A stretch of DNA of 64,000 nt from Raillietiella orientalis (Eukaryota), in the NCBI GenBank assembly GCA_036172245.1, contig JAYWIR010000005.1, forward strand, positions 3,472,001 to 3,536,000, given 5' to 3'. How positions within the stretch are numbered: position 1 is the stretch's first letter; each line of letters begins with the position of its first letter. The notes under the pieces were generated by a model, which worked only from the letters and a program-made list of their open reading frames with translations, had not been told where the DNA came from and searched no databases. The position numbers and the translations under genes were made by a program. Positions 17,278 through 39,972 of this stretch are shown here, in pieces.

Positions 17278-18200
17278 CTTTGCGCCAGGGCGTTTATTTA
17301 AAACTCTTCTATACGTTTGTGGAACGAGACTTACCACCGCGAACACAACATTGGATCTGCCGGGTCGCCGGTACGTAGACCGCCTTGACTCTTCTCGGCA
17401 GCGGATGGGGATAAATAAAAAAAATAAGAAAAATAAGAAAAAATTAAAAAAATGAATATTTTGGAAGGCAGGTTACGGATCACTGTGCTCTGATAGGAGG
17501 GTCCATCCTTCCCAGGATGCCGTCGCGGTCCATCTGCATTCTACTCAGGTGGGACCATCGGATTGCAATTCGCAGGAAACGGACTGCAAACTTGATGGCG
17601 CCCCTTGCGTTGCTTCCTAAGTTGGCATCGCTCCATGCAGCCACAATCCCTCGGATGCAGCAAAGTGCTGCCAGAGCTGCGGCTGGTCGCATGAAGAGAA
17701 GCCGAAAAAAGTTTCTGGAGGGATTGCCAATCGGCATCCAGAGGGTCGTCGAAAGAATTTCTCAAAGGTGTCGGAAGGCAACGCAGTCCACATCCAGGTG
17801 CGGAAGGAATTCCCGTTTCCCGCATCTGGAACAGTTGGGGTTCACCTTCCCCAGCGTCCAGTGGCGGCGGCGCGCGCTGTAGGAGAGACCGTGGTGCAAC
17901 AGTAGGAGTTTCCCGACTCTTGTCACCTCAGGAAAAAGATGCTTGTTTTATTTAATACCAAGAGGTACTTCAGTTCATCCGTCGGGATGCCAAGCAGCTC
18001 TCCCCATCTCTGTGGTCCACGTGGAAGGACGCTCGAGGCTGTGGCGTCCGCCAGCTGTCCTATGGTTTCACCATTCATCGACTTCTCTCTGCATGCGATC
18101 TCGCAGGAGACGTGGGCATCCGGCTGCTATTTACCGCCCTTCTTAGAAAGGGCATCGACTTGACAAGGGGGATCGTCTCCGCCCACGTGCTTCCGCCGGC
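17278..18200 (-). mobile_element. Element N: 3' part of a C/S-type LINE inserted into O
   Basis: RSTWAETIPL...AAALAALCCIRGIVAAWSD...GILGRMDPP. 3' UTR with ctgccg..cggcag stem, and AATAAA at ~17293-17298. Confidence 0.8.
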
Positions 18201-18859
18201 TCTACTGTTGCAGTATTGGGGACTCCCCTGCAACGCCCGCCGACACCACTGGACCTGGGGAGCGGTCGACCCCAACTGCGTTAGGTGTTGGGAACGGGAG
18301 TCCCTCCCCCACCTCCTCGTTGATTGCGTAGGCCTTCGGCCCCTTTGGTTCCGCTTTGCCGCGGACATCGGTATCCCCTGCAGCAACCCCAGGGACGCTC
18401 TAAAAGCCCTCTTCGTTGCCGACGCCCTTCGGCCAGCGGCCTTGATAGCAGCCTTGTGCTGCCTCCGCGTAATCTTCGCCGGATGGAGCAAGGCTTCGGG
18501 AAGACCACGCGCCAAGGGTGCCATCCAGGGCGCCGCCCACTTCCTGAGGAGGACGTCGCGATGGTCCCACCTGGATCCGCGAATACAAGAAGAGCTTTCG
18601 GCATCCTGTGAAGGATGCAGCGGTCCCAGCAGCAACAATGATCCCTTTCCGTACCCTCCCACTTTTTCTTTTTTTTTGTTTTGTTTTTTTTTGTTTTTCC
18701 CCCTTCCCCCTGCTGCCGTGGTGGACCGTTCCGGTCTGCGAACCGGTGACCCGGCAGGCTCTGTGTTTCTTCGTGCGTGGCTGGAGCATTGTTCCAGCCA
18801 CAGCATGTCTTTGTTAAAGTTTGTTTTTCAATAAACGCCCAGACGAAACCCGGGTGAAA
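18201..18859 (+). mobile_element. Element Q: 5'-truncated 3' end of a G-type LINE
   Basis: QYWGLPCNARRHHWTWGAVDPNCVRC..LPHLLVDC is nearly the same as G. The 3' UTR matches G and ends AATAAACG...cccgggtgaaa. Confidence 0.88.
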
Positions 18860-20190
18860 ATCGAATGCCTTGTGCAAGTCGACTGCGACCGCGGTGCACG
18901 GCGTGCGGGTGCGACGCGGGACACGACAAAGCGACATACTGAGTTTCCTGCTCTTTAGCACCTATTTCGAATTGATGCTGGAGCGTACAGGGACACTGGC
19001 TTCCCAGTCGCGCGTATGTCTTGGCACGCTTGCCGTAAGCATACGTGGACGATATTCTCCTGCTCCTCCACCCATATCTATCCCGGCATGAGCATTCAAA
19101 GGCTTTTTGGAATTGCTCATTCGCGTGACGGGCCTGCTGGCTAACAGGCTGAATTCGTCCGCAATTCCATTTTGTGCGGCGTGGACAGGGCGATCGGACT
19201 CTGTTTTTCGTTTGGACGCCTACGGACCGATGCCTAATATACCTGGGCGTTATGTTGGGTAAGTTCTCCTCCGATCGTCTCCAGAAAGCAATGCATGTGC
19301 TAGGCTCGTTCTAAAGGCATGGATTCTGGTTTGCGGTTTGGAACACTTTCGTGGCATTCCTTGGTCCCCTTGTCTTTTTGCTTGTCCCCAGGCATATAGC
19401 ATCAGAAAGCAGAAAAAGTATTTTCTGGATGTCTCTCTAGGGAAAAGGGAAATCCTCAATGCACCTGGAGGACTTAGGCCCTGGGACGGCGGCTCAGTCG
19501 GTCCAACGCTGGGGCAAATGGCTGCGATTTCGAACACTTGCCCTCGTGACAAACTTCCGAAGCACTGCCTGGTACTGTTACTCCAGTTTTGAAGACTTGC
19601 TTTCGTGGCAAATCTCTGGAGAACCATCGGATGCCAAAGTGCTCGTCTTCTCGTTCAGCAATTTACTGGCAGCGTTGGACTCTCATCCTTCCTTGCGGGC
19701 ATTCCACGCATTTTCCTCCACTGAGGACTGACCTGAGACAGGTGGCCACGCTGGAGAGGGAAAAACGATGGATCTCTTGTCGTTTTGCGAGCGGAAATGC
19801 GGGGAAGTGCCAAGTTGCAGGAAACCGTTTGCACATGGGTGGGAATCTATGAGCCAAGCGCGGAGCAGTTGGGAAGTTTCCTGTACACGCGTAACTACAA
19901 CTAAACGCTCCGAGGGATCCCGGAAGTTCCCGCGAAGAGTGAATGGGCAAGCAGAACCCCTTCTCGCCTCCGTGATGCCCTCCTTTAGAGAGCACAGAAA
20001 CAGCAGTCTCACGGCTAGATGGGAAACTTCTGTGGAGATCTCCGGAAGGAGAAAATGACTGGGCGAGTAGAAAATGGGCCAGCTCCGAAACTCTGTGTCC
20101 TCGATTGCTCGACCTCGTAAACTTTTGCGTTGCAGGGTGCTACTGGGTATTGCGGAAGATCTGCCAGTGTCCCAGTGCTCAAACGACGCC
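18860..20190 (+). mobile_element. Element R: old, highly degraded RT/ORF2 fragment with a short inverted piece (18860-18893, antisense AVAVDLHKAFD)
   Basis: VHGVRVRRGTRQSDILSFLLFSTYFEL from 18894, followed by decayed homology to ORF2. The right boundary is approximate. Confidence 0.6.
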
Positions 20191-21989: not shown

Positions 21990-22457
21990 AAACCCTTTAG
22001 GCTGGCAAGAAGGCCGTCAGGCGTCCGGCTTCCCCTTAGGAGTCGGCCACTTCCGACCCCGAGGTGGAGGCCGGAAGCACAGCTTACATCTCCACCGCAC
22101 CCCGCAAAAAGGCTGGACGAAAGTCCACAAAGCCCCGGAAGATCGTCTCCCCCGACGAAGGGGAAGAGATGGCTTCCGGAAGCGAGGGTGCGATGAGCAA
22201 GAAAAACTCACGGGACTCGTCGCCCGAGAGAATCCCACGCTCCGGCACGGAAAAGATGGAGGCCGAACAGGTGCTTTAGGTGCCTGAAGAGGCCTCCGTC
22301 CCCATGGACATCCCCAACACCTGCCCCGCGGCAGGTGCTGGAACGTCAACAGGCTAAGCGACGACGACAAGAGGCTGGACGTGGCAGCCTCTCTGGCATC
22401 CTTCGACCTGGAGCTGCTGCAGAAGATCCACGTGATCTCCTCAGATCAAACCCAGAT
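21990..22457 (+). mobile_element. Element T (left part): ORF1 end and endonuclease start of a B/H-like LINE, host of S and A'
   Basis: Homologous to B 33480-34025. Reads CWNVNRLSDDDKRLDVAASLASFDLELLQKIHVISSDQ. Confidence 0.85.
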
Positions 22458-25400
22458 TTCTCATCCGGTCACGCCGGGGCGTTTATTTCATATAAATTCA
22501 ACAGAAACAATTATATAAAATAAACCAGTTGGGGACCATGCCCCTAACCGACGACGGCACAAGTATCAAGAGTACATTACTAGCACGCAGGCCAGAATAA
22601 CATAACGGTTTGTGGGAACTGGGAAAACAAACAAACAAATACAAAATAAAAAGAAATCAACGGGGACAAGGGTCTTTGGGATCGCTCTGGTTCTTTCCGG
22701 TATAATAGTAATGGCACCGGTATTTTAGCAGAGTGAGCGGGGAAGGGGTATGGGTGGGCTTCAGGACGTAGTGGTCACCGGATTAAGCCGTTCCTAAAAG
22801 TGTGTAAACCGGCGGTGGATGCCGGCGATGTCCTCTTTGACCTCGTCACGAAGATGAGACCACCTAGCAGCGTTTTTCATGGATTCTGCTGCAAACCGGT
22901 GAGCCTCCCTTCGCTGCGCTGACAACTCCAGGGCGTAGAGGGCCTCCACGATGGCGCGAATGCAACACATGGTTGCGACAATCGCGCCTACCGAAAATCC
23001 ATTGCTCCTGAAGAAGCGCCGCAGCACATCAATGGCAGTGCCTCCCTGCGGCAGGATGGCTGAAATCAGCCTTCGCCACAGTTCACGGAGGTCACCGCAG
23101 TCTATCAAGAGGTGCGGAAAAGACTCGATCTCACCGCACCTCAAACAGTTTGGCGGAGCAGCTCCTCCGGAAACGATGCTTCGCTGCCGATTACAGTGGA
23201 AGCCCCAGTGTAAAAAGAGCAGCACATCTTGTTTCCACTTCAAGGGGAACACGGAGCTGTCCAAACAAACGGGGGGGACCACTATCACTTCGGGGGGTAC
23301 AATTAAATGTTCACTCCACCGAAGCAGGCCATTCGCCCGATTACGAGGAGTGGCAGCTTAGACCAGCTCCTTTGTCGTCCAGCAGCCGAGGAGCTTACTG
23401 ACTCCCGCTATTGAGCAGAACTCCCATTTCGCCGGTAGGCAACTGTCGTTGCTTGCCCTGAGGGCAGACAGCGCTGCGGCGAGCGGTGTGGCGGCCAGAC
23501 GATCCGACATCTTCTTGTCCTGCATGACTTCGCCCATTGGATGACTGAGGAGAAGTCGCAGGCGCCGAAGATCTTCCGGGCGCGTTCCTTCGGAAGCTGC
23601 CCACGATGAAAAAGATTCCTGCCGCCATGCATTAATGTTCATGGGGCGGCAGGAGATCCAGCATTGGGCTTCCAGCAGAGAGGACAGCTGCCTCAGCGGG
23701 AAGCCAAACCCTATTATGGTGTGCCGAAAGTGGGGCAGCAACGAAAGCAGTCCCTCGCTTCTTGTGCAGCGCCTCAGTATAAGTCGTGCGGGTAAGCACC
23801 ACGGCGTACACCACAGCTTGGCACACAGCCGCAGCATTCAAAACTGCACCTGCAGCTCGATGCTTTTTAAGTCTAGGGTGCCCAAGCCCGCATCCTGACG
23901 TGGCGCCACCAAGTCTTTAAGTCTTACGCGGGATCTTGCAGCGCCCCACAATGTTTTGCGTAGAAGGTGCTGCGCCCAGACTTTGACTTCCTGGGGGGGT
24001 GGACAAACAAAAAACAGGGGACGGAGGAGGGAAGCAACGAAGGTGTTCCAGATGCTGGCTCGTTCCGGCAAGACGAACTCGCCTCCTGAGAACGGGCCAA
24101 GTGCACGCTCTGCCTTCCGAAGGCAGTCCGACCACGCTTCTGAGATGCAGAAGTCGCCCAACGGCACGCCAAGGTACCTTAGGTACCTGCCCGTGGGGAT
24201 CCCCAGGCGGATCCAGTCGGACTGCCCCTCCAAAGTTGCTCCAACCGGAACAACCAGGCTCTTGCTCCTGTTGACGCTCACGCCCGCACCGCGACGGATC
24301 AACTCAAAGAAATCTTCAAGCGACGCCGCCGGGGTGGACAAGGGCAACAGAAGAAGCAGGTCGTCGGCATAGGCTGCCACGGCCGGCGTACCTGAAGAGG
24401 AGCTCGGCAGGTTCGCTAGCGTCAGCCTGTAAGCCTCCAGAACCATTTCAAAATAGATGCTAAAGAGCAGCGGGCTCAAGCTATCGCCCTGCCTAATTCC
24501 TCGCCTAACAGGCACGCCGTACACGTGACAGCCACTGAAAACAATGGATGTAATCGCGTGGCGCCAGCAGGAGCGCAAGTATGCCAACAGGGATGCCGGG
24601 AGGCCCAGACGTTCCAAGAGCTCAAGAAGAAGGTTTTGGTTCACGCAATCGGAAGCTTTGTGCAAATCGACTGCAACCGCCAAGGCTCCCGGTGTTTCCC
24701 TTTGCGACCCGCGCCTCCGTAGGTGAGAGATCGAAGGCGTCGCTTCCGAACGACGATCCATCGCCACGCGATGCTGCAATTGCAGTCATGTGCGGATGAA
24801 TAAGAGGTTCGCGTCCATGGACCGCCCGGGAACAGCGTAGGTCTGCTCCAGACCTACCAAAGACTCCGCGATCCTCCCCATCCGCGCCACCCAAAGTTTC
24901 GAAAATAACTTGACGTCCGAATTCACTACGGTGATCGGACGCCAATTGTTCAGTTGGCGCAAATCTCCGCCTTTCGGCAGGAGACGCACCTTCGCTGAGT
25001 GAAACGAGGCGGAAACATCGCCCGCGTCTCGCATCAGCGACGAGAGTTGGAGCACCATTGGGATGAGCTCCGCCGCAAAGCACTGGAAGAATTCTGCGGA
25101 TAGTCTATCCTCGCATGGCTCTTTTCGTCTCTTGAGTCCCGAGATGGCCGAGGAAATTTCCTCTGCCGTGAAGGGCTCATCCAGACGCGCGCGTTCCTCC
25201 TCGTCTACAACACGTGCATCGATCGGCAGAAGCAGCTCGGAGAGACTGCATACCGTTGATGCCTCTGCATACAGAGAAGAGTAATAGCGCCTGACTATCC
25301 GTCGCACGTCGGCTGGAGCCGAGCATTCCCGGTCCTGGTCGTCGAGCAGAACTGTCGCCCCTGACTGCCAGACCTGGCGCTCGGCCTTGGCCTTGTTCTC

Positions 25401-25560
25401 GGATAATCGACCAACGTCCGCGTGCCTGGAGTAGGAGCGGGCCTGCAGAAAATCCCTGCTGTTGGCTACACCCTCTCCGAAGCCGCGCGGAAGCTGGTGC
25501 AAGGGAAACCGGCAGCAAAACTCGCGGACCGATCTTTTCACATCGTCCCAGTCGGCGAGC
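22458..25560 (-). mobile_element. Element A': A-type LINE, ORF2 (RT to C-terminus) with stops, plus 3' UTR
   Basis: ORFs 24786-25541, 23838-24779 (YADD), 23358-23837 and 22794-23288 are collinear with A ORF2. Terminal hairpin at 22458-22487. Confidence 0.92.
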
Positions 25561-26821
25561 GAGAGCGGACGGGTTTTTGTTTCGCTCGTGAGCGTTTGTG
25601 GTTTTATTTTTTCTTTTTTTTTCTTGGTGTATCAGTAAATTTTGTGGCAGCAATGCCTGGGACCACCACCAGTGATAAGGAGGGGGCGACGTCTATGTCG
25701 CCCCCTGAATCAATGGATGTGGGGGCAACCGCCCCCACAGAAGCGTCTCCCTCGTTATTGAAAAGCTGGAGTTCCGTGGCTGCGGCGCCAAATAAGCGGC
25801 TGCGGCTGAGTTGAAAGCCTACCTGGAGAAGGGGTACGATCACCCTCTACTCTACAAGGTAGGCAACCTTTACTCCTTTAAGAGTGCACGCGCTTTCTCG
25901 AAAGCGATGCACTCTCTCAAAGTTCCACAGGAGGAGCTCCTGGCGATGACCATCAGGAGCGGTGGACAGTACGTGTAAGTGATTTGCAAAGAAGCAAGTC
26001 TTGCCCAGCGTCTGCTCAGTACATTTGTTCCTTTGAGGAATCGCCGGCTCCTCTCCATCACGGACGGTAGGTCCATCGTGATCCACCTCCTCTGAATCAC
26101 ATTTCGGATGGTCAAAGAGGCTGTCTGAAAGGAATTGCTAAAATTTGGCACCGTCCACGCGTCATGAAAAAAGCCGACTCCGTTTTAAGAATACGGCCGA
26201 CTCGCATGTGGTCTGGTTGCTGCCCGAGTCACAGTCCGCGAGAATTGCTCCTTACCTAACAAGCTGGAAGTCGACGGCGAGTCCGTTGACATTTGGTATG
26301 TTGGGTAGTCGCATTTCTGCGGGCATTCCAGCACTTCGGGTTACCTGAAAAATAGGTGCCCTTACTTGCAGTGCAAGCAATGCAACCAACCCGGGCACAC
26401 TCTTTCGGTGTGCCCGCAAAATGAAATCCGCGTCGCGTCCGCACGGAATGCGAAGAAGCGCGCTGCCAAAAAACTAAGAATTCAGGCAGCCCGAGAGAGA
26501 GCCGCCGCTAAAAAGACAACTATCGTGCCCCAGGTGAAGGTCAGCTCCGAGATCCCAGGAAACTCGGACAAGGTCGAGGAGAACGGTCAGGAACCTGGAT
26601 GGCAGGTAGTATAATCCAAGAGGCAGAAAAGCCTCAAGGAACCAAAAAAAAATGTCGCGAAACGCAGCGAGAATTTGCCGCGTCGCGAAAAGATCAAACG
26701 CTGCTCTGTCGTCATCAAGCGCATTTCTGCGGTCGAACAGAGCGGCAAAGTTGCACTCGTCGCTGCCGACTCTCAGCCCTCCGGCAAATTAATGCCGGAG
26801 GCTATCGACCCGGCGGTGGCG
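25561..26821 (+). mobile_element. Element F: 5' end and degraded ORF1 of a B-type LINE
   Basis: Starts gagagcggacggg. MPGTTTSDKEG...AYLEKGY..LYKVGNLYS and CKQCNQPGHTLSVC knuckle. Many stops. Confidence 0.85.
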
Positions 26822-28380
26822 TCCGCTTTTTTTGGAGATTTTTCTTTCCTCCTCTCCACAACCTTCCATTCGCCTTCGCGATTTTCGGAGGCTTCCGCGA
26901 CAGTAGTTGCGGAAACCTCCGGGATTTTCGCTGCGTTCTCTGGGGGCGTTGCTTTCGCTACGCCTTTAAAAGGCGGCAACGGAGTCACCTTCTTGACAGT
27001 CGGGAGATTGCTCCTCTCCTGCCGAGTCGGCGATGGGGCGACTGCATGCAGCGTGCTTTTGGTCGTTGCGACGCTGCTTTTTACGGCTTTCGTAGCCTTT
27101 GCAGTGGGGCCTGCGCTGCAGTGGGGCTGTCCGGAACTCGGAAGGGACAACGGAACGGGGCAAGAAGTCTTCGCACTGTTGCGATCTTCCTGTTTTCCTA
27201 CCTTTTTCTCCAGGGTGTTACGGAGATTTCCTGGTTCCAGGTTCGGAAAGGTGCCCGCGAGTTCGGCAGAGAGGGAAGGCACGGCACGCGTCAAACCCTC
27301 GCCCCCCTTTTTAATTGGCTTTCCCGCCGTGACTTTCCCCTTTCGGGGCGTTGCGGGCGGGGATGCTTTCTTTTTATCCGCGGATCGCTCGTGGTTTTTT
27401 TCGAGTTTTTGCGGACGACGTTTTTTATTTGCCGCTGCGGCTTTTCGTGCAGTGGTCTCTTGAACCCGACGAATTTCCGCTGCGGCTCTTTTTCTTGCAA
27501 GTACCGGGCACTTTTTGATTTCGTGCCCGGAATCTTTGCAATAGCGGCATCTTGGAGAGGGGCACTTTTTAATTCGGTGCCCCTCCTTGCCGCACTGCTC
27601 GTACGCGCGAGTCTGGCCTATGAACCACAGGTGAACGACCGTGGCGTTCATTTGCAACTGCTCAGGCACAACACGTCTGTTCGCGACGGTGATCCGCGCG
27701 GAGGCTTGTCCAATGTGGACAGAGGGTAAATCCTTTAGAGGATTTGGCCTCCTCCACAGAGGGTGCACGGTGGCGAACTTCTCCTGCACACTTACGACAT
27801 CGCGGTCGGAGATTTCTGGTTCGATGTCGCACAATTGAACGACAAAAGAGTCGTCCATCGCGGTAGGAAGGACTTCCTCGCCATTGATTTTCAACGGCGT
27901 ACGGAGAAGGCGCTGCACAAGTGCTGCGTTCTTGCACCGAATCTTCGTATATTCCATCCTGCCAGCAGGCATTATGGTAAGGAGTTCCTCCTCTCGAACG
28001 CCTATCCGGACGAGCTGATCATTGAGCTCATGACCGATTCTCCCGTTAAGTGGCCCACTGACCTTATAACGGAGTGCAGGCATGTATCCTGATGACACAT
28101 ATGCCTGGAACTCCGCATCGCAGGGTCCTGGTCTTTGGGAGGTAACGACGGCGTAACTCCTCACCGGGGGCGAGGAAACCATTACGGAGGATGCGGCCAC
28201 TTCAAGTGCAGCTGAAGTGCATCCAGTGGCTTGCTCTTCCACACTATCCTGTGTACTGGCTATGTTGCACTATGCTACTTGGCAGATTGCACAGGAACAC
28301 ACAAGTGCGAGCAAAAACGCAGGAACAAAGTTGCCCGATCGTTGGCGCGGATAGACGCGGAAACACGTCTGCACTGTACG
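26822..28380 (-). mobile_element. Element A'': near-identical copy of the 5' end and ORF1 of A
   Basis: ORF 26773-28242 almost matches A ORF1. It has the same 5' end and the same junction with the host (cgtacagtgcagacgtg / agcccgggatat). Confidence 0.93.
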
Positions 28381-29117
28381 AGCCCGGGATATCGAACGGA
28401 TCTCCGGTGGGCGGCTGTTGTGGCGTTGCGGCACCGCGAAATCAAGCGGTGTCGCCTTCCTGCTTCGGCCAGCCATCGAGACCGCAATAAAGGACGTTCG
28501 GTTCGATGACGCAGGTCGCGTCGGTCAGCTGACTCTCAGCTGGTCCGACTCTATCGACCTGGTCGTCACCAACCTATACGCTCCTAGCGGAAACAACGTG
28601 TTGAGGGCGAAGGCAAGAAGGGAATTCTACCTTGCCCTGAGACGCGATTGGCTGACCGATGCAGGAGTTCGCAAAGCGCACCTGATCGCAGGTGATTTCA
28701 ACCTGCGCCTGCTTTCAGGTGCGCCGGATACACTGAACGACCGTGTCAACGAGTTGTGCGCAGAAATGAACACGCGCAACTTGTTGGCCGGGGACACGGC
28801 CATGGAAAGCAGCATCGATCACGTGTACCTTGATCAGCACCTATGCTCTTGGGTGGGCAGGCGCGGCAAGGTACCATCCGTGCTGTCGGACCATGGTCGG
28901 ATCATGTTCGAAGTGCGTCCGCGCGACAAGGGCCCCCACTCGTCAGCGTGGCGTCTGCCAGGGGACTGGCTGAAGTTTCCCGACGCGGCGGAGCACCTCC
29001 GCGCGTTTATTCGGAGCTTCAGAATTCAGACACTTCAGGACTGGGACCGCTTCAAGCGGTCGGTCCAGGAGTTCTGCGACCAGTTCCCCCTGCATCGCCT
29101 ACCTGCGGGATTTGGGG
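28381..29117 (+). mobile_element. Endonuclease segment near-identical to B 39973-40698
   Basis: WRCGTAKSSGVAFLL..NLYAP..IAGDFN..IDHVY..SDH. Confidence 0.92.
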
Positions 29118-32100
29118 TTGTCACCCGGGTACGCCCGGGACGTTTATTAAAAAAACTCTACAGAAACGTGGTACGAGGTTCCACTAATGGCCACACAACA
29201 CCGGACCTGCCGGGACGCCGGGACGCAGCTCGGCGTGACGCTCCTCGGCAGTGGAGGGGGATAGGGATCAAAACAAAATTAAAAATAAAAAAAAAGGAAA
29301 ACAAAAAAGAGTTTGGAGGGAGGGGAAGGGATCACAATCCACTGGGAGGAGGGCCAATCCTTCGCAGGATGCCCTCCAGGTCCATCTTCATGTTTCCCAG
29401 ATGGGGCCATCTCGCTGCTCTCCGCATGAAGCAGACCTCATACGGGATGACATCCCTCACGTTGGCATCCACTCCTCCGTCGCGAATGTCGCTCCATGCC
29501 GCCACGATGCCCCGGATGCAGCAAAGGGCTGCGAGGGCTGCGGCGGGCTGCAGGGCGTCTCGCACGAAGAGGGGCCGAAGAACGTCTCTTGGCGCGCTGC
29601 CCGTTGGGAGCCCGAAGGTCGTCCCGAACCGTTCCCACAGGGGTCGGAGGGCAGCACAGTCAACTAGTAGGTGGCGGAGCGATTCCCGCTCCCCACACCT
29701 GGCACACTCAGGCCTTACACTCCCCCGCGTCCAGTGGAAGCGGCGCGCGTTGCAGGGTAGACCCCAGTGCAACAGCAGCAGCGCCGACTCTTGCCACTTC
29801 AGGGGGAGAAGCCTGGATCCTATCAGTATTGGGGGAAACTTTAGGTCATCCGTCGGGATGATGAGCAGCTCGCCCCATCGACGAAGTCCACGAGGGAGGG
29901 CACTCGGGGTCGTGGCATCCGCCAGTTCTCCCATGGTCCAGCCGCTCATCTTCTTCTCCTTGCCTGCGATTCGGCAGGAGACTTGCCACTTTGGCTTGCG
30001 GCCGCTGGTTAAAGCCCTCCGGAGGAAGGGCAGGGTCGAAGCTAGAGGGGTGGTCTCCGCCCACGTGCTCCTGACGGGACACTCCAGAGTAGTCCGCAGT
30101 GTGCAGCGGGCGTTGGGGCCGAATCGCAGGCGGTTCCAGTCCGGGGAAGTCTCGAGGTTCAGCTTGGCCCACGTCGCAACTGATTCCTCCAGCCAGGCGG
30201 AGGAGTTGGCGGGGCTGCATACCGTCCAGCCGTTGTCTCTGACCAGGGCTTCCATGCGCCCAAGAAAAGGCCACATCTTCTCACCTTCCTGCCGGAGCAC
30301 AGAAGGTACGACGCGAGTCCTTGCGTCCTGCACACACGGCTGGCGAGGATTCGGGCCGGAACCCACCAAGGGGTGCTCCATGACTTTGCTGCGATGGCGA
30401 GGGTGCGCCATCGCAGCTGTATTTCCAGGCGCTTTAGCGTCAGGAGGCCAAGACCGCCGTCCCGACGAGGAGCGCATAAATCATCCAGAGGCACACGTGG
30501 CCTCCCGCTGCCCCAGAGGGAGATGCGGAGTAGGTCTTTTGTCCTCTTTTTGATGTCACGGGGGACGGGGCACACAAAAAGCAGGGGGCGGAGGATGGGA
30601 GCCGCGAAGGCGTTCCACACCGCGGCCCGTTCCGGCAGAAGGAACTTGCCTTCCAGGAACGGGCCGATTGCCAACTCTACCTTCTGGAGACGACCTGACC
30701 AGGCTTCTGCGAGGCAGAAGTCCCCCAACGGGACACCCAGGTACTTCAGGTACCTGGCCGTGGGAATCCCCAAGCGGATCCAGTCAGGCCGTCCGACCCA
30801 CGTCGCACCCACCGGTACTACCGACGACTTCGCCTTGTTTACCCGCAGTCCAGTCCCACGACTTAGCAGGTCGAAGAAATCCTCGACTGCGGCTGCCGGG
30901 CGGACATGGGCAACATGAGCAGAAGATCGTCGGCGTATGCTGCAACGGCGGGCGTGCCGGGGCACGAGCTGGGCAGGGCAGCCAAAGTCACCCTGTACGC
31001 TCTCAGCACCAACTCAAAGTAGGTGCTGAAGAGCAGGGGGCTGAGGCTATCTCTCTGCCTTATACCCCACCGCACCGGCACGCCATGCACCTTGTGACCG
31101 CTGAAAGAGACGGTAATTATCGCATTCCGCCAGCACGAGCGCAGGTAGGAAATCAGGGAGGGTAGAAAGCCCATGCGACACAGGAGCTCCAAGAGGAGTT
31201 CCTGGTCTACACAGTCGAACGCCTTGTGGAGGTCGACTGCGAGCGCTAAGGCCCCCTTTTCCGCCCGGGGGTCCCTTCATAGCCCGGCTGGCGGCCTCAA
31301 TGTGGAGTTCCCAACTTTCCCTATCCCTTTCTTTTCTCTTCTCTGCAGGTGCACCCATGTGCTTGCGAAGAAGAGGTTGGCATCCATACTTCGCCCGGGA
31401 ACAGCATAAGTCTGCTCCGGGATAATTACGGATTCTGCCACCTGCCCCAGACGCGAAGCCCATAGCCCTGCGATCAACTTGGCGTCCGTATTCACGATCG
31501 TGATCGGACGTCAGTTCTTAAAATTCCTGAGGTCTCCCACTTTCGGAAGGAGCCTCACTCTGGCTGACCGAAACGAGGCTGGAACATCGCCTTCGTCTCG
31601 GATCAGCCTAATCAACTTAAGCAGCAGGGGTGCCAGTTCTTTAGCGAAGCTCTGAAAGAACTCCGCGGGCAAGCCGTCTTCCCCTGGAGCTTTACGCCTC
31701 TTGAGCCTTTTGATACCGGCGGGAATTTCGCCGGTGGGAAAAGTCTCGTCGAGGCTTTTCATCTCCTCCTCTCCTATTGCCGGGGCGCCATCCGGAAGCA
31801 AGCGCCAAGAAACGTGTCGATCCGGGTGCTCCCTGGCGTAAAGGGAGGAATAAAAACTCTGCCCGAGATGCCGTACCGACGCTGGGTCGAACATTCCCGG
31901 CCCTGGTCGTCCAGCAAGCTGGCCGACCCGGATTGCCAGGCTTGGCGTTCAACCTCGGCGCGGTACTCGGCCAGGCGACAGACATTAGGGGTTCTCTCGT
32001 ACCTACGAGCCTGTAAATAGGCCCGATGGTTGCAAGCACCCTCGCCGAATCCGGGGGGCAGGCGGTCCAGGGGGAACTGCTCACAGAACTCGCGGACCGA

Positions 32101-34025
32101 TTCCTTAAAAAGGTCCCAGTCCTGGAGATTCCCTAGCGTCGAGCGGACGTGTCTTTTCGTTGCTCCTGAGTTTCATTTCCGTTGGTGCTTGTGCGTGGTG
32201 TGGGTGGAGGATTAGGCAGCGATGCCTGATACCACCACCGGTGAGGATCCAGGGGCGATGACCTCATTGCCCCCGGAGCAGATGGAGGTGGGGGCTCCCG
32301 CATCAGTGGTGGTGCCGCCAGCACTGATGCGCCTCCGGCCCTACCCAGGGCTTGGAACGCCGTGGCTGCGGCACCTCCGCCAGCGGCTTTGGCGGAAATG
32401 CGCGCTTACCTGGAGGAGGGGTATAACCCATCCCTTCTATATAAGGTAGGCGGTCTATATTCTCCCGAGAACGCGCGCGCCTTCTCACAGGCGATGCGCG
32501 TTCTCGGCGTACAGAAAGAGGAGCTTCTGGCTATGTCCGTCAGAAGCGGGGGTCAATTTGTGAAAGTTATCTGCAAGGAGGCAACTCTTGCGCAGAGACT
32601 TCTGCGAACCCCCATAATTATGGGCAGCCGGAGGCTTCTCCCAATTACTAAAGACCGGTCGGTGATCATTCACCTGACCGGTATCACGTTCCGGATGACG
32701 AAGGAGGCCGTCCGGAACGAATTCGAAAAATTCGCAACTGTCCACGCGCTGTGGGGTAAACCTACTCCTTTTGTCGATTACGACGGGGTGCTAGGCGGCC
32801 TGGGTGCAGCGCGAGTGACGGTTCGCGAGGGATGTGAGGTTCCCCACAAACTCATCGTCAACGGTGAATTCGTTGACGTGTGGTACGTGGGGAAACCCTA
32901 GTTTTGCGGCTGCTGCAGCAGGTTTGGTCACCTTAAAATGAGGTGTCCGAGCGTGCAGTGCTAGCAATGCAAACAAGCGGGGCACACCCGTCTGGTGTGC
33001 CCCTAAAACACAGTCCGCGTCGTGTCCGCGAAAAACGCGAAAAAGCGCGCGGCTAAAAAGAGGAAAAAGCTGGCAGGTCGTGCTGCTGCTAAGGAGGTCA
33101 CTTCCGCCACCAAGGCGAAGGCCAGCCCCGAGACTCCGGCGAAAAACGCCGAAAAGGTCGAGGGCGAGGGTCAAGAGCCAGGGTGGCAGAAGGCCGATCC
33201 CAAGAAAAACTCCCATAAGAAGGGAAAGAACGTGGCGAAACGGAGCGAAACCGCTCTGCGCCGCGAAAAAATTAAAAGCTGCTGCGTCGTTGTAGAGCAG
33301 ATTCCCGCCATCGACGAATGCGGCGCTAAAGAACTCGCTGCTGCCCCTGCTCAACCCTCCGTTGACAAAGTCAACAAGGAGGGGAGCGAGGCGGCGGCGT
33401 CCGTCATCGAGCCCACGCTCGATGACGTCGCCTTCGAGCGCGACGCGGAAGCTGACTGCCACGTTGCAGCCGGTTGCCCCCAAGGCTGGCAAGAAGGCCG
33501 TCAGGTGTCGGGCTTCCCCTCAGGAGTCGGCCACTTCCGACCCCGAGGTGAAGGCCGGAAACACAGCATCCATCTCCGCGGCACCCCGCAAAAAGGCAAG
33601 ACGAAAGTTCACAATGCCCCGGAAGATCGTCTCCCCCGCCGAAGGGGAAGAGATGGCTTCCGGTAGCGAGGGTGCCATGAGCGTTTGAAACTCCCGGGAC
33701 CCGTCGCCCGAGAGAATTCCACGCTCGGACACGGAGGGGATGGTGGAGATGGAGGCCGAACAGGTATCCCAGGCGCCTGAAGAGGCCTCCGTCCTCTTAC
33801 CGATGGACCTGTCCGACACCTGCCCCGCGGCAGGTGCCGCGACGCCACTTTCCCAGCCATAATGCCGGGAAAGGCCTCTCGCCGTCGACTTCTGATCGCC
33901 TGTTGGAACGTGAACGGGCTAAGCGACGACGGCAAGGGGCGTGACGTGGCCGCCACCCTGGCATCCTTCGACCTGGTGCTGCTGCAGGAGATCCACGTGA
34001 TCTCCGCAGATCAAGCCCGGGAGAT

Positions 34026-34055
34026 TTCTCACCCGGTCACGCCGGGGCGTTTATT
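34026..34055 (-). terminator. AATAAA followed by a CCCGG-N4/5-CCGGG hairpin forming the element 3' end; representative copy
   Basis: Found at about 12 element ends (14343, 15930, 17278, 18830, 21962, 22458, 29118, 34026, 43578, 43949, 53559, 61212); degenerate in the older copies. Confidence 0.75.
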
Positions 34056-34378
34056 CCATATAACATAACCAAAAAAAGCAATTATACAAAATAAACCAGT
34101 TGGGAACCAAACTCCCAACCGACGACTGAACAAGAATGAAGAGAATATTGCTGGCACGCAGGCCAGAGTAACAGTTTTGTGAACGGTGTGGGGGGGCAGG
34201 GAACACAAAGAAACCAAAATAAAATAAAAACAATGAATAAGGAGGACGGGATAAGGGTCTTTGGGATCGCTCTGGAAGACACGGGGATAAAAGCATGGGC
34301 ACCGGAAATTTTACCGAGCGAACGGGGACGGGGTATGGGTGGGCGAGAGGTCGCAGGGGTCACCGGATTACGCCGTTC

Positions 34379-37300
34379 TCAAATGTGTGTAAACCGGCGA
34401 TGTATGCCGGTGATGTCCTCATTCACCTTGTCACGAAGATGAGACCACCTTGAAGCCTTCTCCATGAATTGAGCTGCAAGCAGGTGAGCCTCCCTTCGCT
34501 GCGATGACAACTCCAGGGCGTAGCGGGCCTTCACGATGGCGCGAACGCAACACATGGTTGCGACAATCGCGCCAACCGAAAGTCCATTTCTGCTGAAGAA
34601 GCGCCGCAGCACATCAATGGCAGTGCCTCCTTGTGGCATGATGGCCGAAGTGAGCCTTCGCCACAGTTCCCGGAGGTTACCGCAGTCCAACAAAAGGTGC
34701 GGAAAAGACTCGATCTCTCCGCACCTTAAACAGTTTGGCAAAGCAGCTCCCCCGGAAACGATGCTTCGCTGCCTATTACAGTGAAATGCACAATGTAAAA
34801 AGAGCAGCACATCTTGTTTCCACTTAAGGGGGAACACGGAGCTCTCCAAACAAACGGGGGGAACCACTATCTCTCCGGGGGGCACACTTAAATGTTCGCT
34901 CCACCGAAGCAGTCCCTTCGCCCGATTCCGAGGTGTGGCGGCTTGCACCAGCTCCTTTGTCGTCCAGCTGCCGAGGAGCTTACTGACTCCCGCTATTTTG
35001 CAGGAGATCTTCCATTCCGCCGGTAGGCAACCGTCGTTGCTTGCCCTGAGGGCAGACAGCGCTGCGGCGAGTGGTGTGGCGGCCAGACGATCCGACAACT
35101 TCTTGTCCTGCATGACTTCGTCCATTTGATGACTGAGGAGAAGTCGCAGGCGTCGAAGATCTTCCGGGCGCGTTCCTTCGGAAGCTGCCCACGATGAAAA
35201 AGATTCCTGCCGCCATGCATTAATGTTCATGGGGCGGCAGAAGATCCAGCTTTGGGCTTCCAGCAGTGAGGACAGCTGCCTCAGCGGGAAGCCAAACCCT
35301 ATTCTGGTGTGCCGAAAGTGGGGTAGCAACGAAAGCAGTCCCTCGCTTCCCGTGCAGCGCCTCAGTATAAGGCGTGCGGGTAAGCACCACGGCGTACACC
35401 ACAGCTTGGCACAGAGCCGCAGCATGCGAAACTGCACCTGCAGTTCGATGCTGTTTAAGTCGAGGATGCCCAAGCCTGCATCCTGACGCGGCGCCACCAA
35501 GTCTCTAAGTCTAACACGGGATCTTGCAGCGCCCCACAACGCTTTGCGTAGAAGGCGCTGCGCCCAGACTTTGACTTCCTGGGGGGGTGGACAAACAAAA
35601 AACAGGGGGCGGAGGAGGGGGGCAACGAAGGTGTTCCAGATGCAGGCCCGTTCCGGCAAGACGAACTCGCCTCCTGAAAACGGGCTAAGTGCACGCTCTG
35701 CCTTCCGAAGGCAGTCCGACCACGCTTCTGAGACGCAGAAGTCGCCCAACGGCACGCCAAGGTACCGGAGGTACCTGCCCGTGGGGATCCCCAGGTCGAT
35801 CCAGTCGGACTGCCCCTCCCACGTCGCACCAACCGGAACAACCATACACTTACTCCTGTTAACGCTCACGCCCGCACCACGACGGATCAACTCAAAGAAA
35901 TCTTCAAGCGACGCTGTCGGGGTGGACATGGGCAACAGGAGAAGCAGGTCGTCGGCATAGGCTGCCACGGCGGGCGTACCTGGACAGGAGCTCGGCAGGT
36001 TGGCTAGCGTCAGCCTGTAAGCCTCCAGCACCAATTCGAAATAGATGCTGAAGAGCAGCGGGCTTAAGCTGTCACCCTGCCTAATTCCTCGTCGTACCGG
36101 CACGCCGTACACGCGACAGCCACTGAAAACAATGGATGTAATCGCGTGGCGCCAGCAGGAGCGCAAGTACGCCAACAGGGATGCCGGAAGACCCAGACGT
36201 TCCAAAAGCTCAAGAAGAAGCTTTTGGGTCACGCAATCGAAAGCTTTGTGCAGATCGACTGCAACCGCCAAGGCTCCCGGTGTCTCCCTTTGCGTCCCGC
36301 GCCTCCGTCGGTGAGAGATCGAAGGCGTCGCTTCCGCACGACGATCCACCGCCACACGATGCTGCAATTGCAGCCATGTGCGGATGAACAAGAGATTCGC
36401 GTCCAAGGACCGCCCTGGATCAGCGTACGTCTGCTCCGGACTTACCAAGGATTCCGCGATCCTACCCATCCGCGCCACCCAAAGTTTCGAGAACAACTTG
36501 ACGTCCGAATTCAATAATGTGATCGGACGCCAGTTGTTCAGTTGGCGCAAATCTCCGCCTTTCGGCAGTAGACGCACCTTCGCTGAGCGAAACGAGGCGG
36601 GGACATCGCGCGAGTCTCGCATCAGCGACGAGAGCTGGAGCACCAGAGGGATGAGCTCCGCCGCAAAACACTGAAAGAATTCCGCGGGGAGCCCATCTTC
36701 GCCTGGCGCTTTTCGTCTCTTGAGCCCCGAGATGGCCGAGGAAATTTCCTCTGCCGTGAAGGGCTCATCAAGACGCGCGCGTTCCTCCTCGTCTACAACA
36801 GGTGCATCAATCGGCAGAAGCAGCCGGGAGAGGCTGCGTTCCGTCGGTGCCTCTGCATACAGAGAAGAGTAATAGCGCCTGACTATCCGTCGCACGTCGG
36901 CTGGAGCCGAGCATTCCCGGTCCTGGTCGTCGAGCAGAACTGTCGCCCCTGACTGCCAGACCTGGCGCTCGGCCTTGGCCTTGTACTCGGATAATCGACC
37001 AACGTCCGCGCGCCTGGAAAAGGAGCGGGCCTGCAGAAAATCTCTGCTGTTGGCTACGCCCTCTCCGAAGCCGCGCGGAAGCTGGTGCAAGTGAAACCGG
37101 CAGCAGAACTCGCGGACCGATCTTTTCAGATCGTCCCAGTCCTCGAGCTCACTTATGGCAAAGCCGAGGAGGTACTGGCGAAGATGCTCAGCCGCCTCCG
37201 GGTGGCTTAGCCAGTCTGCCGGCATCCTCCAAAAACAGTTTGTAGGCCCCTTGCCTGGCGGGAGCAACTCGAACTCGAGCCTGTTGTGGTCTGAAAGCAC

Positions 37301-37951
37301 GGACGGCACGGGACCTCTCCGACCCACTCGACAGAGCAAGTGTTTATCAAGGTATACGTGGTCCGGCGTTGCTGCCATAACAGGGTCGCTAGCGAACAAG
37401 TTGCACGCGTGCACGGACGCGCACATCTCTTCCGCTAGCAACTTTTCCCTTTTGTGGGATCTATTCTCGGAAAGCAGGTGGACGTTAAAGTCCCCCGCAA
37501 TGAGATGGGCCACAGTAGGGTGAGATCGAGTGAGCCACTGGCCTTGAAGGGTACCGAAGAACTCAATCCTTTCGGCCCATCGTCCAGCACCGCTCGGCGC
37601 GTACACGTTGGTTACGACAAGGTCGATCGAGTCGGACCACTTGAGTACAAGCTGTCCCACTCGGCCTTCCGTGTCGAAACGAACGCTGCGCACCGCTCCC
37701 GCCAAAGTTCCTCGCACGAGGAAAGCGACGCCGCACGTACGTGCAACGCCGCACCTATGAAGTAGCGTTCCGCCCGCGCGCCGTTCGATTTCGGCAGCCT
37801 GCTCTCCGGAGATGCTGTGACTCTCCTGCAGGAGCGTCAAGTCGAAGGCGCGCAGAGCGTCAGCCACTAGTCGCCTCTTCTCCTCGTGTTGGAGCCCGTT
37901 GACGTTCCAAGACGTTACGGCAACACGACGAGAAGACGCGATTGCCCTCAT
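34379..37951 (-). CDS. ORF2 of element A: APE endonuclease + reverse transcriptase + CCHC finger (~1190 aa)
   Basis: WNVNGL, LQE, NVYAP, AGDFN, DHVY, SDH; KAPGEDG, NWRPITL, DLHKAFD, RQGDSLSP, YADD, YLG; CLRCGEIESFPHLLLDC. The ATG overlaps the ORF1 stop (TGATG). Confidence 0.96.
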   Translation of the reverse strand: MRAIASSRRVAVTSWNVNGLQHEEKRRLVADALRAFDLTLLQESHSISGEQAAEIERRAGGTLLHRCGVARTCGVAFLVRGTLAGAVRSVRFDTEGRVGQLVLKWSDSIDLVVTNVYAPSGAGRWAERIEFFGTLQGQWLTRSHPTVAHLIAGDFNVHLLSENRSHKREKLLAEEMCASVHACNLFASDPVMAATPDHVYLDKHLLCRVGRRGPVPSVLSDHNRLEFELLPPGKGPTNCFWRMPADWLSHPEAAEHLRQYLLGFAISELEDWDDLKRSVREFCCRFHLHQLPRGFGEGVANSRDFLQARSFSRRADVGRLSEYKAKAERQVWQSGATVLLDDQDRECSAPADVRRIVRRYYSSLYAEAPTERSLSRLLLPIDAPVVDEEERARLDEPFTAEEISSAISGLKRRKAPGEDGLPAEFFQCFAAELIPLVLQLSSLMRDSRDVPASFRSAKVRLLPKGGDLRQLNNWRPITLLNSDVKLFSKLWVARMGRIAESLVSPEQTYADPGRSLDANLLFIRTWLQLQHRVAVDRRAEATPSISHRRRRGTQRETPGALAVAVDLHKAFDCVTQKLLLELLERLGLPASLLAYLRSCWRHAITSIVFSGCRVYGVPVRRGIRQGDSLSPLLFSIYFELVLEAYRLTLANLPSSCPGTPAVAAYADDLLLLLPMSTPTASLEDFFELIRRGAGVSVNRSKCMVVPVGATWEGQSDWIDLGIPTGRYLRYLGVPLGDFCVSEAWSDCLRKAERALSPFSGGEFVLPERACIWNTFVAPLLRPLFFVCPPPQEVKVWAQRLLRKALWGAARSRVRLRDLVAPRQDAGLGILDLNSIELQVQFRMLRLCAKLWCTPWCLPARLILRRCTGSEGLLSLLPHFRHTRIGFGFPLRQLSSLLEAQSWIFCRPMNINAWRQESFSSWAASEGTRPEDLRRLRLLLSHQMDEVMQDKKLSDRLAATPLAAALSALRASNDGCLPAEWKISCKIAGVSKLLGSWTTKELVQAATPRNRAKGLLRWSEHLSVPPGEIVVPPVCLESSVFPLKWKQDVLLFLHCAFHCNRQRSIVSGGAALPNCLRCGEIESFPHLLLDCGNLRELWRRLTSAIMPQGGTAIDVLRRFFSRNGLSVGAIVATMCCVRAIVKARYALELSSQRREAHLLAAQFMEKASRWSHLRDKVNEDITGIHRRFTHI

Positions 37952-39855
37952 CACGGCTGGGAAAGCGAGGCCGTGGTGCTCGCCTCACCCGGCGAGCGGG
38001 CAGTAAGCAGCACGACGGGCTGAAGGGCGCGGTCGCCACCGGCCTCAACTGTGCTGCACGTAATCGGGTGCTCCTCCCCGGGTGCAGAACCTGTGGGTTC
38101 CGGGGTGAGCACTCGCCGTTCCGCGGCGAGTGTGTCACGCCTCAGGGCTTCAGCCCTGCGGGCGCTCGCTCCCGCGCGAGTTACGCGTCGTTCAGCTGCG
38201 TTATCGGACTCCTTTGCAGGGTCTGATGCTCGCACGATCGACGTGCGCTTGCATCCGTCCGATTGCACCGGAATGGTCTTCTCGGCGGTCACAGAAGCGG
38301 ACTTGCACGCATTGAAGGCGCAGGCTTTTTCCTTGGAAGAGTCACACGCCGCGCGTGTTTTCGTATTCCTGCGACTGCTTTTTCCTTTGGAAGAGCTCAG
38401 GGATGGAGGTTGCGGAGCTTTTTTTGGAGATTTTTCTTTCCTCCTCTTCACAAACTTCCATTCGCCTTCGCGATTTTCGAAGGCTTCCGCGACAGTAGTT
38501 GCGGAAACCTCCGGGATTTTCGCTGCGTTCTCTGGGGGCGTTGCTTTCGCTACGCCTTTAAAAGGCGGCAACGGAGTCACCTTCTTGACAGTCGGGAGAT
38601 TGCTCCTCTCCTGCCGAGTCGGCGATGGGACGACTGCATGCAGCGTGCTTTTGCTCGTTGCGACGCTGCTTTTTACTGCTTTCGTAGCCTTTGCAGTGGG
38701 GCCTGCGCTGCAGTGGGGCTGTCCGGAACTCGGAAGGGACAACGGAACGGGGCAAGAAGTCTTCGCACTGTTGCGATCTTCCTGTTTTCCTACCTTTCCC
38801 TCCAGGGTGTTACGGAGATTTCCTGGTTCCAGGCTCGGAAAGGTGCCTGCGAGTTCGGCAGAGAGGGAAGGCACGGCACGCGTCAAAGCCTCGCGCCCCT
38901 TTTTAATTGGCTTCCCCGCCGTGACTTTCCCCTTTCGGGGCGTTGCGGGCGGGGATGCTTTCTTTTTATCCGCGGATCGCTCGTGGTTTTTTTCGAGTGT
39001 TTGCGGACGACGTTTTTTATTTGCCGCTGCGGCTTTTCGTGCACTGGTCTCTTGAACCCGACGAATTTCCGCTGCGGCTCTTTTTCTTGCAAGTACCGGG
39101 CACTTTTTGATTTCGTGGCCGGAATCTTTGCAATAGCGGCATCTTGGAGAGGGGCACTCTTTAATTCGGTGCCCCTCCTTGCCGCACTGCTCGCACGCGC
39201 GAATGTGGCCTATGAACCACCGGTGAACGACCGTGCCGTTCACCTGCAGCTGCTCAGGCACAACACGCCTGTTCGCGACGGTGATCCTCGCGGAGGCTTG
39301 TCCAATGTGGACAGAGGGGAAATCCTTTAGAGGATTTGGCCTCCTCCACAGAGCGTGCACGGTGGCGAACTTCGCCAGCACACTTACGACATCGCGGTCG
39401 GAGATTTCCGGTTCGATGTCGCACAATTGAACGACAAAAGTGTCGTCCATCGCGGTAGGTAGGACTTCCTTGGCATTGATGGTCAACGGCGTACGGAGAA
39501 GGCGCTGCACAAGTGCTGCGTTCTTGCACCGAATCTTCGTATATTCCATCCTGCCAGCAGGCATTATGGCAAGGAGTTCCTCCTCGCGAATGCCTATCCG
39601 GACGAGCTCATCATTGAGCTCACGACCGATTCTCCCGTTAAGTGGCCCACTGACCTTATAACGGAGTGCAGGCATGTATCCTGATGACACATATGCCTGG
39701 AACTCCGCATCGCAGGGTCCTGGTCTTTGGGAGGTAACGACGGCGTAACTCCTCGCCGGGGGCGAGGAAACCATTACGGAGGATGCGGCCACTTCAAGTG
39801 CAGCTGAAGTGCATCCAGTGGCTTGCTCCTCCACACTATCCTGTGTACTGGCCAT
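37951..39855 (-). CDS. ORF1 of element A: nucleic-acid-binding protein (RRM-like region, two CCHC knuckles, basic low-complexity tail), 634 aa
   Basis: CEQCGKEGHRIKEC and CRYCKDSGHEIKKC; K/A/P/S-rich C-terminal half. Confidence 0.92.
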   Translation of the reverse strand: MASTQDSVEEQATGCTSAALEVAASSVMVSSPPARSYAVVTSQRPGPCDAEFQAYVSSGYMPALRYKVSGPLNGRIGRELNDELVRIGIREEELLAIMPAGRMEYTKIRCKNAALVQRLLRTPLTINAKEVLPTAMDDTFVVQLCDIEPEISDRDVVSVLAKFATVHALWRRPNPLKDFPSVHIGQASARITVANRRVVPEQLQVNGTVVHRWFIGHIRACEQCGKEGHRIKECPSPRCRYCKDSGHEIKKCPVLARKRAAAEIRRVQETSARKAAAANKKRRPQTLEKNHERSADKKKASPPATPRKGKVTAGKPIKKGREALTRAVPSLSAELAGTFPSLEPGNLRNTLEGKVGKQEDRNSAKTSCPVPLSLPSSGQPHCSAGPTAKATKAVKSSVATSKSTLHAVVPSPTRQERSNLPTVKKVTPLPPFKGVAKATPPENAAKIPEVSATTVAEAFENREGEWKFVKRRKEKSPKKAPQPPSLSSSKGKSSRRNTKTRAACDSSKEKACAFNACKSASVTAEKTIPVQSDGCKRTSIVRASDPAKESDNAAERRVTRAGASARRAEALRRDTLAAERRVLTPEPTGSAPGEEHPITCSTVEAGGDRALQPVVLLTARSPGEASTTASLSQP

Positions 39856-39952
39856 GTTGCACTATGCTACTTGGCAGATTGCACAGGAACACACAAGTGC
39901 GAGCAAAAGCGCAGGAACAAAGTTGCCCGATCGTTGGCGCGGATAGACGCGG

Positions 39953-39972
39953 AAACACGTCTGCACTGTACG
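39953..39972 (-). promoter_or_regulatory. Conserved 5' RGACGTGT motif, putative internal Pol II promoter (DPE-like); representative copy
   Basis: Occurs within ~5-20 nt of the 5' end of L, F, A'', B, A, D, C, H, G and I. Resembles the downstream promoter element of arthropod LINEs. Confidence 0.6.

Follow-up and report, generated by a model that had tools for sequence, protein, structure and literature searches.

Recurrent antisense junctions of B-type LINEs at two sites in the ORF2 of sibling LINEs in Raillietiella orientalis

The LINE nest and its families

This study deals with the insertion sites of one family of long interspersed nuclear elements (LINEs), here called B-type, in Raillietiella orientalis. 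All results refer to a single stretch of 64 kb of contig JAYWIR010000005.1 (the window), which has a G+C content of 55% and contains no N letters. A near-continuous nest of retrotransposons lacking long terminal repeats (non-LTR), with at least 12 nested events, begins near 13.4 kb and extends over the rest of the window, up to 64 kb. All B-type ends in the window, that is five of five 5' ends and three of three 3' ends, lie at one of two positions in the second open reading frame (ORF2) of a host LINE, and all are antisense to that ORF2. The two positions are referred to as site 1 and site 2, and individual elements are denoted by letters.

The LINE fragments were mapped by tblastn with both proteins of an intact element, A, as probes. 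Element A (34026-39972, minus strand), delimited from its ORFs, Pfam matches and junction sequences, is a full-length A-type LINE that sits antisense in a B-type ORF2, at amino acids (aa) 62-67. Its ORF1 encodes 636 aa with a CCHC knuckle, and its ORF2 encodes 1201 aa with an apurinic/apyrimidinic (APE) endonuclease (PF03372, Pfam positions 25-233) and a reverse transcriptase (RT; PF00078). Both domains are also found on the ORF2 pieces of element H, and RVT_1 on B; zf-CCHC is found on ORF1 of A and of C. The five B-type ORF1 pieces have no Pfam match at an E-value of 0.1, and they align to aa 8-307 of the A ORF1 at about 30-38%. The best solved relative of the A ORF2 is human LINE-1 ORF2p (E 3e-45), as compared with only E 2e-13 for R2, an element that uses a restriction-like endonuclease. 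The closest database proteins are at most 31% identical to the A ORF2, and none is named Zepp. Judged from their predicted proteins, the elements of the nest are assigned to the APE-type, L1-like non-LTR retrotransposons.

Although the ORF2 proteins of the different families are only 36-65% identical, the ends of the elements are conserved. The 5' ends contain G(C/A)GGACGTGTTT in all families. The 3' ends in all families carry AATAAACG, a short GC hairpin (CCCGG..CCGGG), CCGGGT and then two to six A/T, as seen in 3' end scans at 29123-29148, 34030-34055, 43579-43606 and 53560-53588. The B-type 5' end is conserved as well (..GCGGACGTGTTT..). No poly(A) tail is present at any LINE 3' end scanned in the window. 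The absence of poly(A) does not bar LINE status, some LINE clades having none. Target-site duplications (TSDs) measure 8 bp for B, about 12 bp for A and 9 bp for D. A 25-nt degenerate pattern taken from the conserved ORF1 start matched two loci in metagenomes; these had no further similarity to the window and are chance matches.

Two B-type insertions at site 1

Site 1 lies in the L-x-D-W-D motif of ORF2. The first insertion there is that of B in C. B extends over 32131-43606 on the plus strand, antisense in C, and carries the intact element A in its ORF2. Its 5' segment (32131-34025) contains the 5' end, ORF1 and aa 8-67 of ORF2, where it is broken by the nested A. The 3' segment (39973-43606), traced by tblastn, RVT_1 and a 3' end scan, contains aa 62-1199 of ORF2 and the 3' end ...cccggcgcacccgggttttaa. 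On the left, the 3' part of host C (29123-32130, minus strand; tblastn, RVT_1, zf-RVT) covers ORF2 aa 276-1198, has the 3' end aataaacg-hairpin-ccgggtga and stops with NLQDWD at site 1. The junction reads GTCCCAGTC at 32113-32121, then TGGAGATT at 32123-32130, located by exact pattern search, and the B 5' end ccctagcgtcgagcggacg from 32131. A second copy of TGGAGATT stands at 43607-43614, immediately past the B 3' end (...cccgggttttaa), and host C continues from there on the minus strand (43607-43951; ORF2 aa 185-281) up to the 3' end of D. In the host orientation, the two sides read NLQDWDLFKESVREF at 32086-32130 and ...AKEHLCEYLRGVTLRNL at 43609-43680, encoding …LRNL / NLQDWD…. Exact matches to TGGAGATT number five in the window, two of them being the TSD copies of B, vs. 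a mean of 2.0 in shuffled sequences.

Because identical 8-bp TSDs are found on both sides and the C ORF2 resumes beyond B, B is a true insertion, placed about 45 aa past the endonuclease (EN) domain of the C ORF2. Twin priming or template switching as the origin of the head-to-head junction of B is ruled out by B's own TSD and by the resumption of the host. A 5' inversion of a single LINE through twin priming is also ruled out, insert and host belonging to different families (ORF1 about 30% aa identity). A public read run, X1, contains 0.21 of the sampled words of the window; of 685 contig pieces obtained at 80% likeness, 410 are less than 90% alike. Among the joints listed, one X1 contig links 32121 to 43609 at a depth of 4, with three other letters in between, which weakly supports a C-like copy without B, as expected.

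Host C is also interrupted by D (43949-49857, minus strand), whose ORF2 is 65% identical in aa to that of A. D lies in sense orientation in the EN domain of C, at the GDFN motif, between TSD copies of 9 bp (43940-43948 and 49858-49866). Since D sits in the EN domain of C with a TSD, C is a full-length element, with its 5' end near 52098, split by D and B.

The second site-1 insert is F (25561-26824, plus strand), a B-type 5' piece of 1264 nt delimited by blastn and by alignments to B, G, H and I. It comprises the 5' end gagagcggacg, the 5' untranslated region (UTR) and the N-terminal part of ORF1. Its host A' (22450-25560, minus strand) comprises a 3' UTR and ORF2 aa 280-1201 with three in-frame stops, is 89% identical in aa to the intact A ORF2 (tblastn) and ends at LADWD, where F begins. 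At this junction, GTCCCAGTC occupies 25545-25553 and is followed by GGCGAGC, whose last letter is at 25560, next to the first letter of F at 25561. On the minus strand the sequence is LADWDDVKRSVREF. When A', C and the uninterrupted A are aligned together, A' is homologous to A until ...CGAGC, and the 5' junctions of B and F are 2 nt apart. The right edge of F joins the ORF1 of A' at aa 482. Eight nt to the right of this edge, at 26833-26840, stands TGGAGATT, the same 8-mer as the TSD of B, an unexplained occurrence. Twin priming would be a contrived explanation for F.

In an alignment that starts at the 5' end and runs through ORF1, B and F are 64.3% identical over 1234 columns. Over 945 in-frame columns, the identity is 65.3%, the differences by codon position are 90/70/168 and the ratio of nonsynonymous to synonymous substitution rates (dN/dS) is 0.175. 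Their hosts C and A' are 59.5% identical, with codon-position differences of 348/234/514 and a dN/dS of 0.205. Because hosts and inserts have both diverged by 35-40% under purifying selection, B/C and F/A' are not one duplicated junction. To judge from these substitution patterns, B, F, C and A' diverged as active lineages and not by decay of a single duplicated junction. For an element of about 6 kb, two orientations and two given junctions within +/-2 nt, simple arithmetic gives a probability of about 4e-4 that the B and F junctions agree by chance.

An earlier note, made from the sequence alone, had described both junctions as they are found here. It had held that the N-terminal parts of ORF1 of B and F are related, that the hosts belong to different subfamilies, that duplication cannot explain the pair, and that both elements insert antisense in the same place after the EN domain. 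The alignments agree with each of these statements and support two independent insertions, the differences lying mostly at third codon positions. Concerning F, the site and the orientation stand, but it may not be a complete insertion, only a 5' piece being present.

A different history has nevertheless to be considered at this point, namely that a single old insertion per site was copied. A composite of host and insert would have been spread by segmental duplication or inversion, and parts of it would later have been overwritten by gene conversion stopping at the junction. The arrangement around F lends some substance to this history. Indeed, the composite A'/B' (A' at 22450-28379, minus strand) is paralogous to A/B in two blocks, 21999-25560 with 33483-37148 (76-96% identity) and 26825-29117 with 38417-40700 (94-99%), and the more similar block stops precisely where two heterologies occur, namely F and the C 3' end. 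A' and A have the same 3' junction with B' and B, the TTCT filler included, yet to the left of F the ORF2 of A' differs from that of A with a dN/dS of 0.28, which fits conversion; to the right of F the value is 0.8-0.9. The shared junction would mean either that two A-type elements entered one site or that a duplication was later partly converted. On the other hand, B/C and F/A' differ by 35-40% with a dN/dS of about 0.2, so that host and insert would both have to be overwritten around an unchanged junction; to account for the whole B-type pattern, this would have had to happen several times.

Further observations concern A-type copies. The 3' flanks of A and A' begin with ATCTC, as does the flank of a third A-type copy. 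At 14313-14345 (minus strand), an A-like 3' end (...gaggtgagaa) is followed by a 15-nt spacer starting with ATCTC and then by an A-like 5' end, agagcggacgtg, in head-to-tail arrangement.

A second site and its relation to clade

Site 2 is located on the antisense strand of the RT motif VDLHKAFD. One occupant is H (53560-59142, minus strand), a near full-length B-type LINE of 5583 nt delimited by tblastn, end scans and junction alignment. H is antisense in host M (59143-61242, plus strand), a C-type element represented from ORF2 aa ~575 to its 3' end, the first 21 nt of which (59143-59163) form the site-2 interval next to the H 5' end. Another host-like site-2 interval of 21 nt (53539-53559, minus strand) separates the H 3' end from the 5' end of G, which follows H head to tail. 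G (52099-53538, minus strand) is a B-type 5' part with the 5' end tagagcggacg and an open ORF1 of 364 aa, cut at about position 1345 by the C 5' end. I (62755-64000, plus strand), a B-type 5' part running off the window, lies antisense in M' (61244-62754, minus strand; C-type ORF2 aa ~575-1073), at the same nucleotide as H in M. Finally, P (18197-18893, plus strand) consists of a B-type 3' fragment, up to 18858, followed by the host flank aatcgaatgccttgtgcaagtcgac..., the antisense of AVAVDLHKAFD. About 35 nt beyond the host fragment beside P (18859-18960; antisense aa ~568-579), the same part of ORF2 reappears in the sense direction, starting at aa ~617; 18859-18960 is a small inverted join within a host RT domain.

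The 5' junctions of G (53538), H (59142) and I (62755) fall in one alignment column, and the 3' junctions of H (53560) and P (18858) are identical (...ccgggtgaa|aatcga...). Uninterrupted copies of site 2 are present in C, A, D and B. In host coordinates, the 5' and 3' junctions share 17-21 nt, so that a stagger of 17-21 bp would have been used.

H and I are 92% identical, whereas their hosts M and M' are 73.1% identical, with codon-position differences of 88/93/197 and a dN/dS of 0.246. In steps of 100 columns, the identity drops from about 90-98% to about 70-80% at the H/I junction. The host identity and dN/dS indicate that M and M' belong to separate host lineages in which a B-type element occupies one and the same nucleotide position. 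G and H are 78% identical with a dN/dS of 0.27, and for this reason G/H is not a tandem duplicate formed in situ.

The idea of copied junctions draws support here from H+M and I+M', which form an inverted pair. It is confronted with the G/H tandem, in which two inserts diverged at a dN/dS of 0.27 are separated by a host interval, an arrangement that conversion does not make. The C-type elements, taken as a control, speak against it as well. Their four 3' ends (17270, 21988, 29123 and 61242) have four different flanks, with no recurrence (0/4). Because these flanks all differ, recurrent junctions are not a general by-product of local duplications. As the use of the sites also follows clade (see below), we regard copying of one old insertion per site as an unlikely origin of the recurrent junctions.

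Rearrangement by inversion has probably affected the nest. An inverted repeat of 18-20 nt is found at 21990-22007 (plus strand), to the right of the 3' end of the C-type copy E, and at 52099-52118 (minus strand), to the left of the C 5' end; G ends and B' (21990 onward) begins at the same B-type position, about 1345. These features fit an inversion of about 30 kb by recombination between the inverted C-type copies E and C (78% identical, dN/dS 0.31). The coinciding break points and the inverted repeat speak for G and B' being the halves of one inverted element. Against this, B' resembles B (85-87%) more than H (81%), while G resembles H (78%) more than B (60-64%).

An unrooted FastTree tree of the five B-type 5' regions separates (F,B) from (G,H,I) with a support of 1.0, and P is 80.7% identical to H vs. 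70.7% to B. The insertion site follows clade, B and F being at site 1 and G, H, I and P at site 2. The earlier note had predicted that all B/F-type copies would be flanked upstream by TCCCAGTC. This is true of two of the five 5' ends (B and F) and fails for the other three (G, H and I). It had added that unrelated flanks at further copies would make the first two a coincidence. That conclusion does not follow here, since G, H and I share a second exact site and the sites follow the split (B,F)|(G,H,I). The site preference it proposed is therefore strengthened, and its single motif gives way to two clade-specific sites.

The density of the nest makes coincidence worth weighing. Nearly every LINE lies within another LINE, the region from ~13.4 to 64 kb being nearly all LINE with its dozen or more nested events; many pairs of junctions can be compared, and the likenesses between motifs were noticed post hoc. 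Two separate coincidences would be needed, the second involving three 5' junctions in one column and two identical 3' junctions. Moreover, all of these junctions are antisense and the site follows clade. For independent uniform insertions, arithmetic puts the joint chance far below 1e-6, and we hold coincidence to be very improbable.

Real hot spots might also arise without an endonuclease that reads sequence, if the ORF2 RNA or cDNA of the insert paired with the host (R-loop, microhomology) or if a local DNA structure attracted insertions. Such guidance would also give an antisense bias. Among nested insertions with readable orientation, A in B, B in C, F in A', C in B', H in M, I in M' and M in M' are antisense, D in C being the sole sense case. 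The targets are the most conserved nucleotide blocks of all families, the same 18-mer adjoins site 1 in A, A' and C, and B's own antisense ORF2 makes an exact 13-nt match to the C target across the nick. However, the ORF2 of each sub-clade contains both motifs, yet one site is used per sub-clade. The longest exact match between H and its target region spans 10 nt and is not located at the nick, and the junctions are exact to the nucleotide, as at sites read by proteins. Guidance by pairing or structure thus appears improbable as the cause of the two sites.

The left part of the window, outside the nest, contains ankyrin-repeat ORFs (2577-4549, plus strand; Ank_2 at E 3e-24 and 3e-49) with a weak PRANC-like match.

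Probable target specificity and comparison with known systems

The window itself shows the positions of the junctions, the TSD of B and the constant orientation, and it shows that the hosts are independent and that site correlates with clade. These findings point to a target-specific parasite of parasites, not to chance. We consider it probable that the B-type elements are L1-like LINEs whose sub-clades are each specific for a particular conserved ORF2 motif of sibling LINEs. They would be autonomous, with their own APE endonuclease and RT, and highly selective in where they integrate by target-primed reverse transcription, namely in conserved coding stretches of the ORF2 of sibling LINEs and always antisense. 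B and F would enter site 1, on the antisense strand of L-x-D-W-D about 45 aa past the EN domain; G, H, I and P would enter site 2, on the antisense strand of V-D-L-H-K-A-F-D, with the stagger of 17-21 bp. For B, the first nick would fall on the host sense strand, at ...aatctcca|ggactggga, and the second on the other strand, 8 nt off. In the H clade, the nicks would be 17-21 nt apart. At each site the motif GGTCC(C)A precedes the first nick by 3-4 nt, as seen by eye and post hoc. Inspected by eye, the RNA 3' end shows no pairing with the primer strand for B, and at most 3 nt for H. By analogy with Tx1L, R1 and TRAS, the encoded endonuclease or ORF2 protein would read the site, and this habit would build the nest made only of LINEs.

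Several observations weigh against specific targeting as set out here. Most copies of both sites are empty. Site 1 is occupied in two of the six ORF2 copies listed, so that the sites are far from saturated. The two targets have no more than a 6-7-nt motif in common. Independent events are scarce, with two at site 1 and at least three at site 2, and come from one 64-kb window. In addition, duplication, conversion and probable inversion are frequent here, so that some junctions could be copies. F has neither a 3' end nor a TSD. Its 1264 nt stand in for 1268 nt of A', and the near-equal lengths are unexplained. Instead of local reverse transcription, repair or conversion from a different locus may have brought F into A'. 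The boundary between F and its host is uncertain by up to 7 nt leftward, given a possible GNNC extension of B-type 5' ends, which is seemingly present in the 5' ends of F, G, H and I. Regarding H, the two flanking 21-nt intervals agree at 13 of 21 positions, counted by eye, too few for a fresh TSD. The flanks of H probably stem from different host copies joined by later recombination, to judge from this mismatch, and a simple double insertion with a fresh TSD is not claimed for the H-G tandem. As to F, it could be a full insertion that later suffered a deletion, or a partial repair copy from a locus with F at the same site. Under either history, an F-type insertion at site 1 of an A-type host occurred somewhere.

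Target specificity might not be restricted to the B-type. The ATCTC flanks of A-type copies hint, at the level of sequence, at a preferred site for these elements too, and A-type elements may favour one site in the B-type ORF2 (aa 62-67), common to A and A'. A tentative extension, which we hold to be slightly more doubtful than credible, is that the nest arose from several sibling LINE lineages acting as a guild, every one of them aimed at a precise position in the coding sequence of the others. As the B/F clade enters L-x-DWD and the G/H/I/P clade VDLHKAFD, the target would on this view have switched between sub-clades.

On the same view, the targets would be catalytic or structural motifs that a host LINE cannot alter without dying, and thus a safe haven from which the host could not escape, and this process alone would yield islands like those serving as centromeres in some algae. 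If the B-type elements do have such specificity, insertion into sequence that resident LINEs must conserve would provide a mechanism for the growth of nested LINE-only islands that spare genes, a kind of island known from reports of Zepp-type clusters and Cnl1 arrays. Programmable RNA-templated gene insertion has its natural models in target-specific LINEs, among which few APE-type specificities are known. Two sub-clades with two ORF2 motifs would be a natural pair for finding the endonuclease residues that set the target.

LINEs that target themselves or other elements are already known. What differs here is the exact position in the coding sequence of sibling families, the antisense orientation and the use of two sites by two sub-clades. 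The literature searched gave no account of antisense, codon-exact LINE-in-LINE targeting, which is not proof of absence; supplementary junction tables for Zepp-like elements may exist.

R1, R2, TRAS and SART are target-specific LINEs of rDNA and telomeric repeats. In such LINEs, a single nucleotide position of a conserved multicopy target holds many independent copies, with constant orientation, fixed stagger and double insertions in tandem at the same site (double insertions are the subject of bioRxiv 10.1101/158386), and the B-type elements resemble them in this pattern. In the window, independent copies lie 2 nt apart at site 1 and in the same columns at site 2, always in the same orientation relative to the host. 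In contrast, the targets of R1, R2, TRAS and SART are host genes or repeats, and not the polymerase gene of another retrotransposon.

Other LINEs do insert into mobile elements or into their own copies. Zepp and ZeppL of the green algae Chlorella, Coccomyxa and Chlamydomonas are described, in the portions of the sources used here, as L1-type elements that target existing copies and form one nested cluster per chromosome (PMC8226300, PMC3446292). The likeness lies in L1-type LINEs gathered in clusters of nested copies. By that description, the Zepp clusters are set apart as tandem arrays mostly of 3' ends, for which those portions describe no exact site, whereas the window contains several diverged families inserted antisense at fixed ORF2 codons. 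Cnl1 of Cryptococcus is likewise reported, in the corresponding part of its source, to prefer its own copies as insertion sites and to give rise to nested arrays (PMC9942834). According to this part, Cnl1 nests in tandem, that is in the same orientation, near telomeres, unlike the antisense insertions into other families at two defined sites seen here.

A further parallel is Tx1L of Xenopus laevis, a member of the L1/Tx1 group. In the part of PMC1919474 drawn on here, Tx1L inserts into the DNA transposon Tx1D, a specificity ascribed to the endonuclease, and the combination of a sequence-reading ORF2 protein with target-primed reverse transcription is given as established for Tx1L, R1 and TRAS. 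Tx1L and the B-type elements, whose nest has an L1-like ORF2, are alike as APE-type LINEs found at a fixed position in another mobile element. Compared with Tx1 by this description, the B-type elements differ in that their target is the coding sequence of sibling LINEs, entered antisense by two sub-clades at two sites, and in that they have no poly(A).

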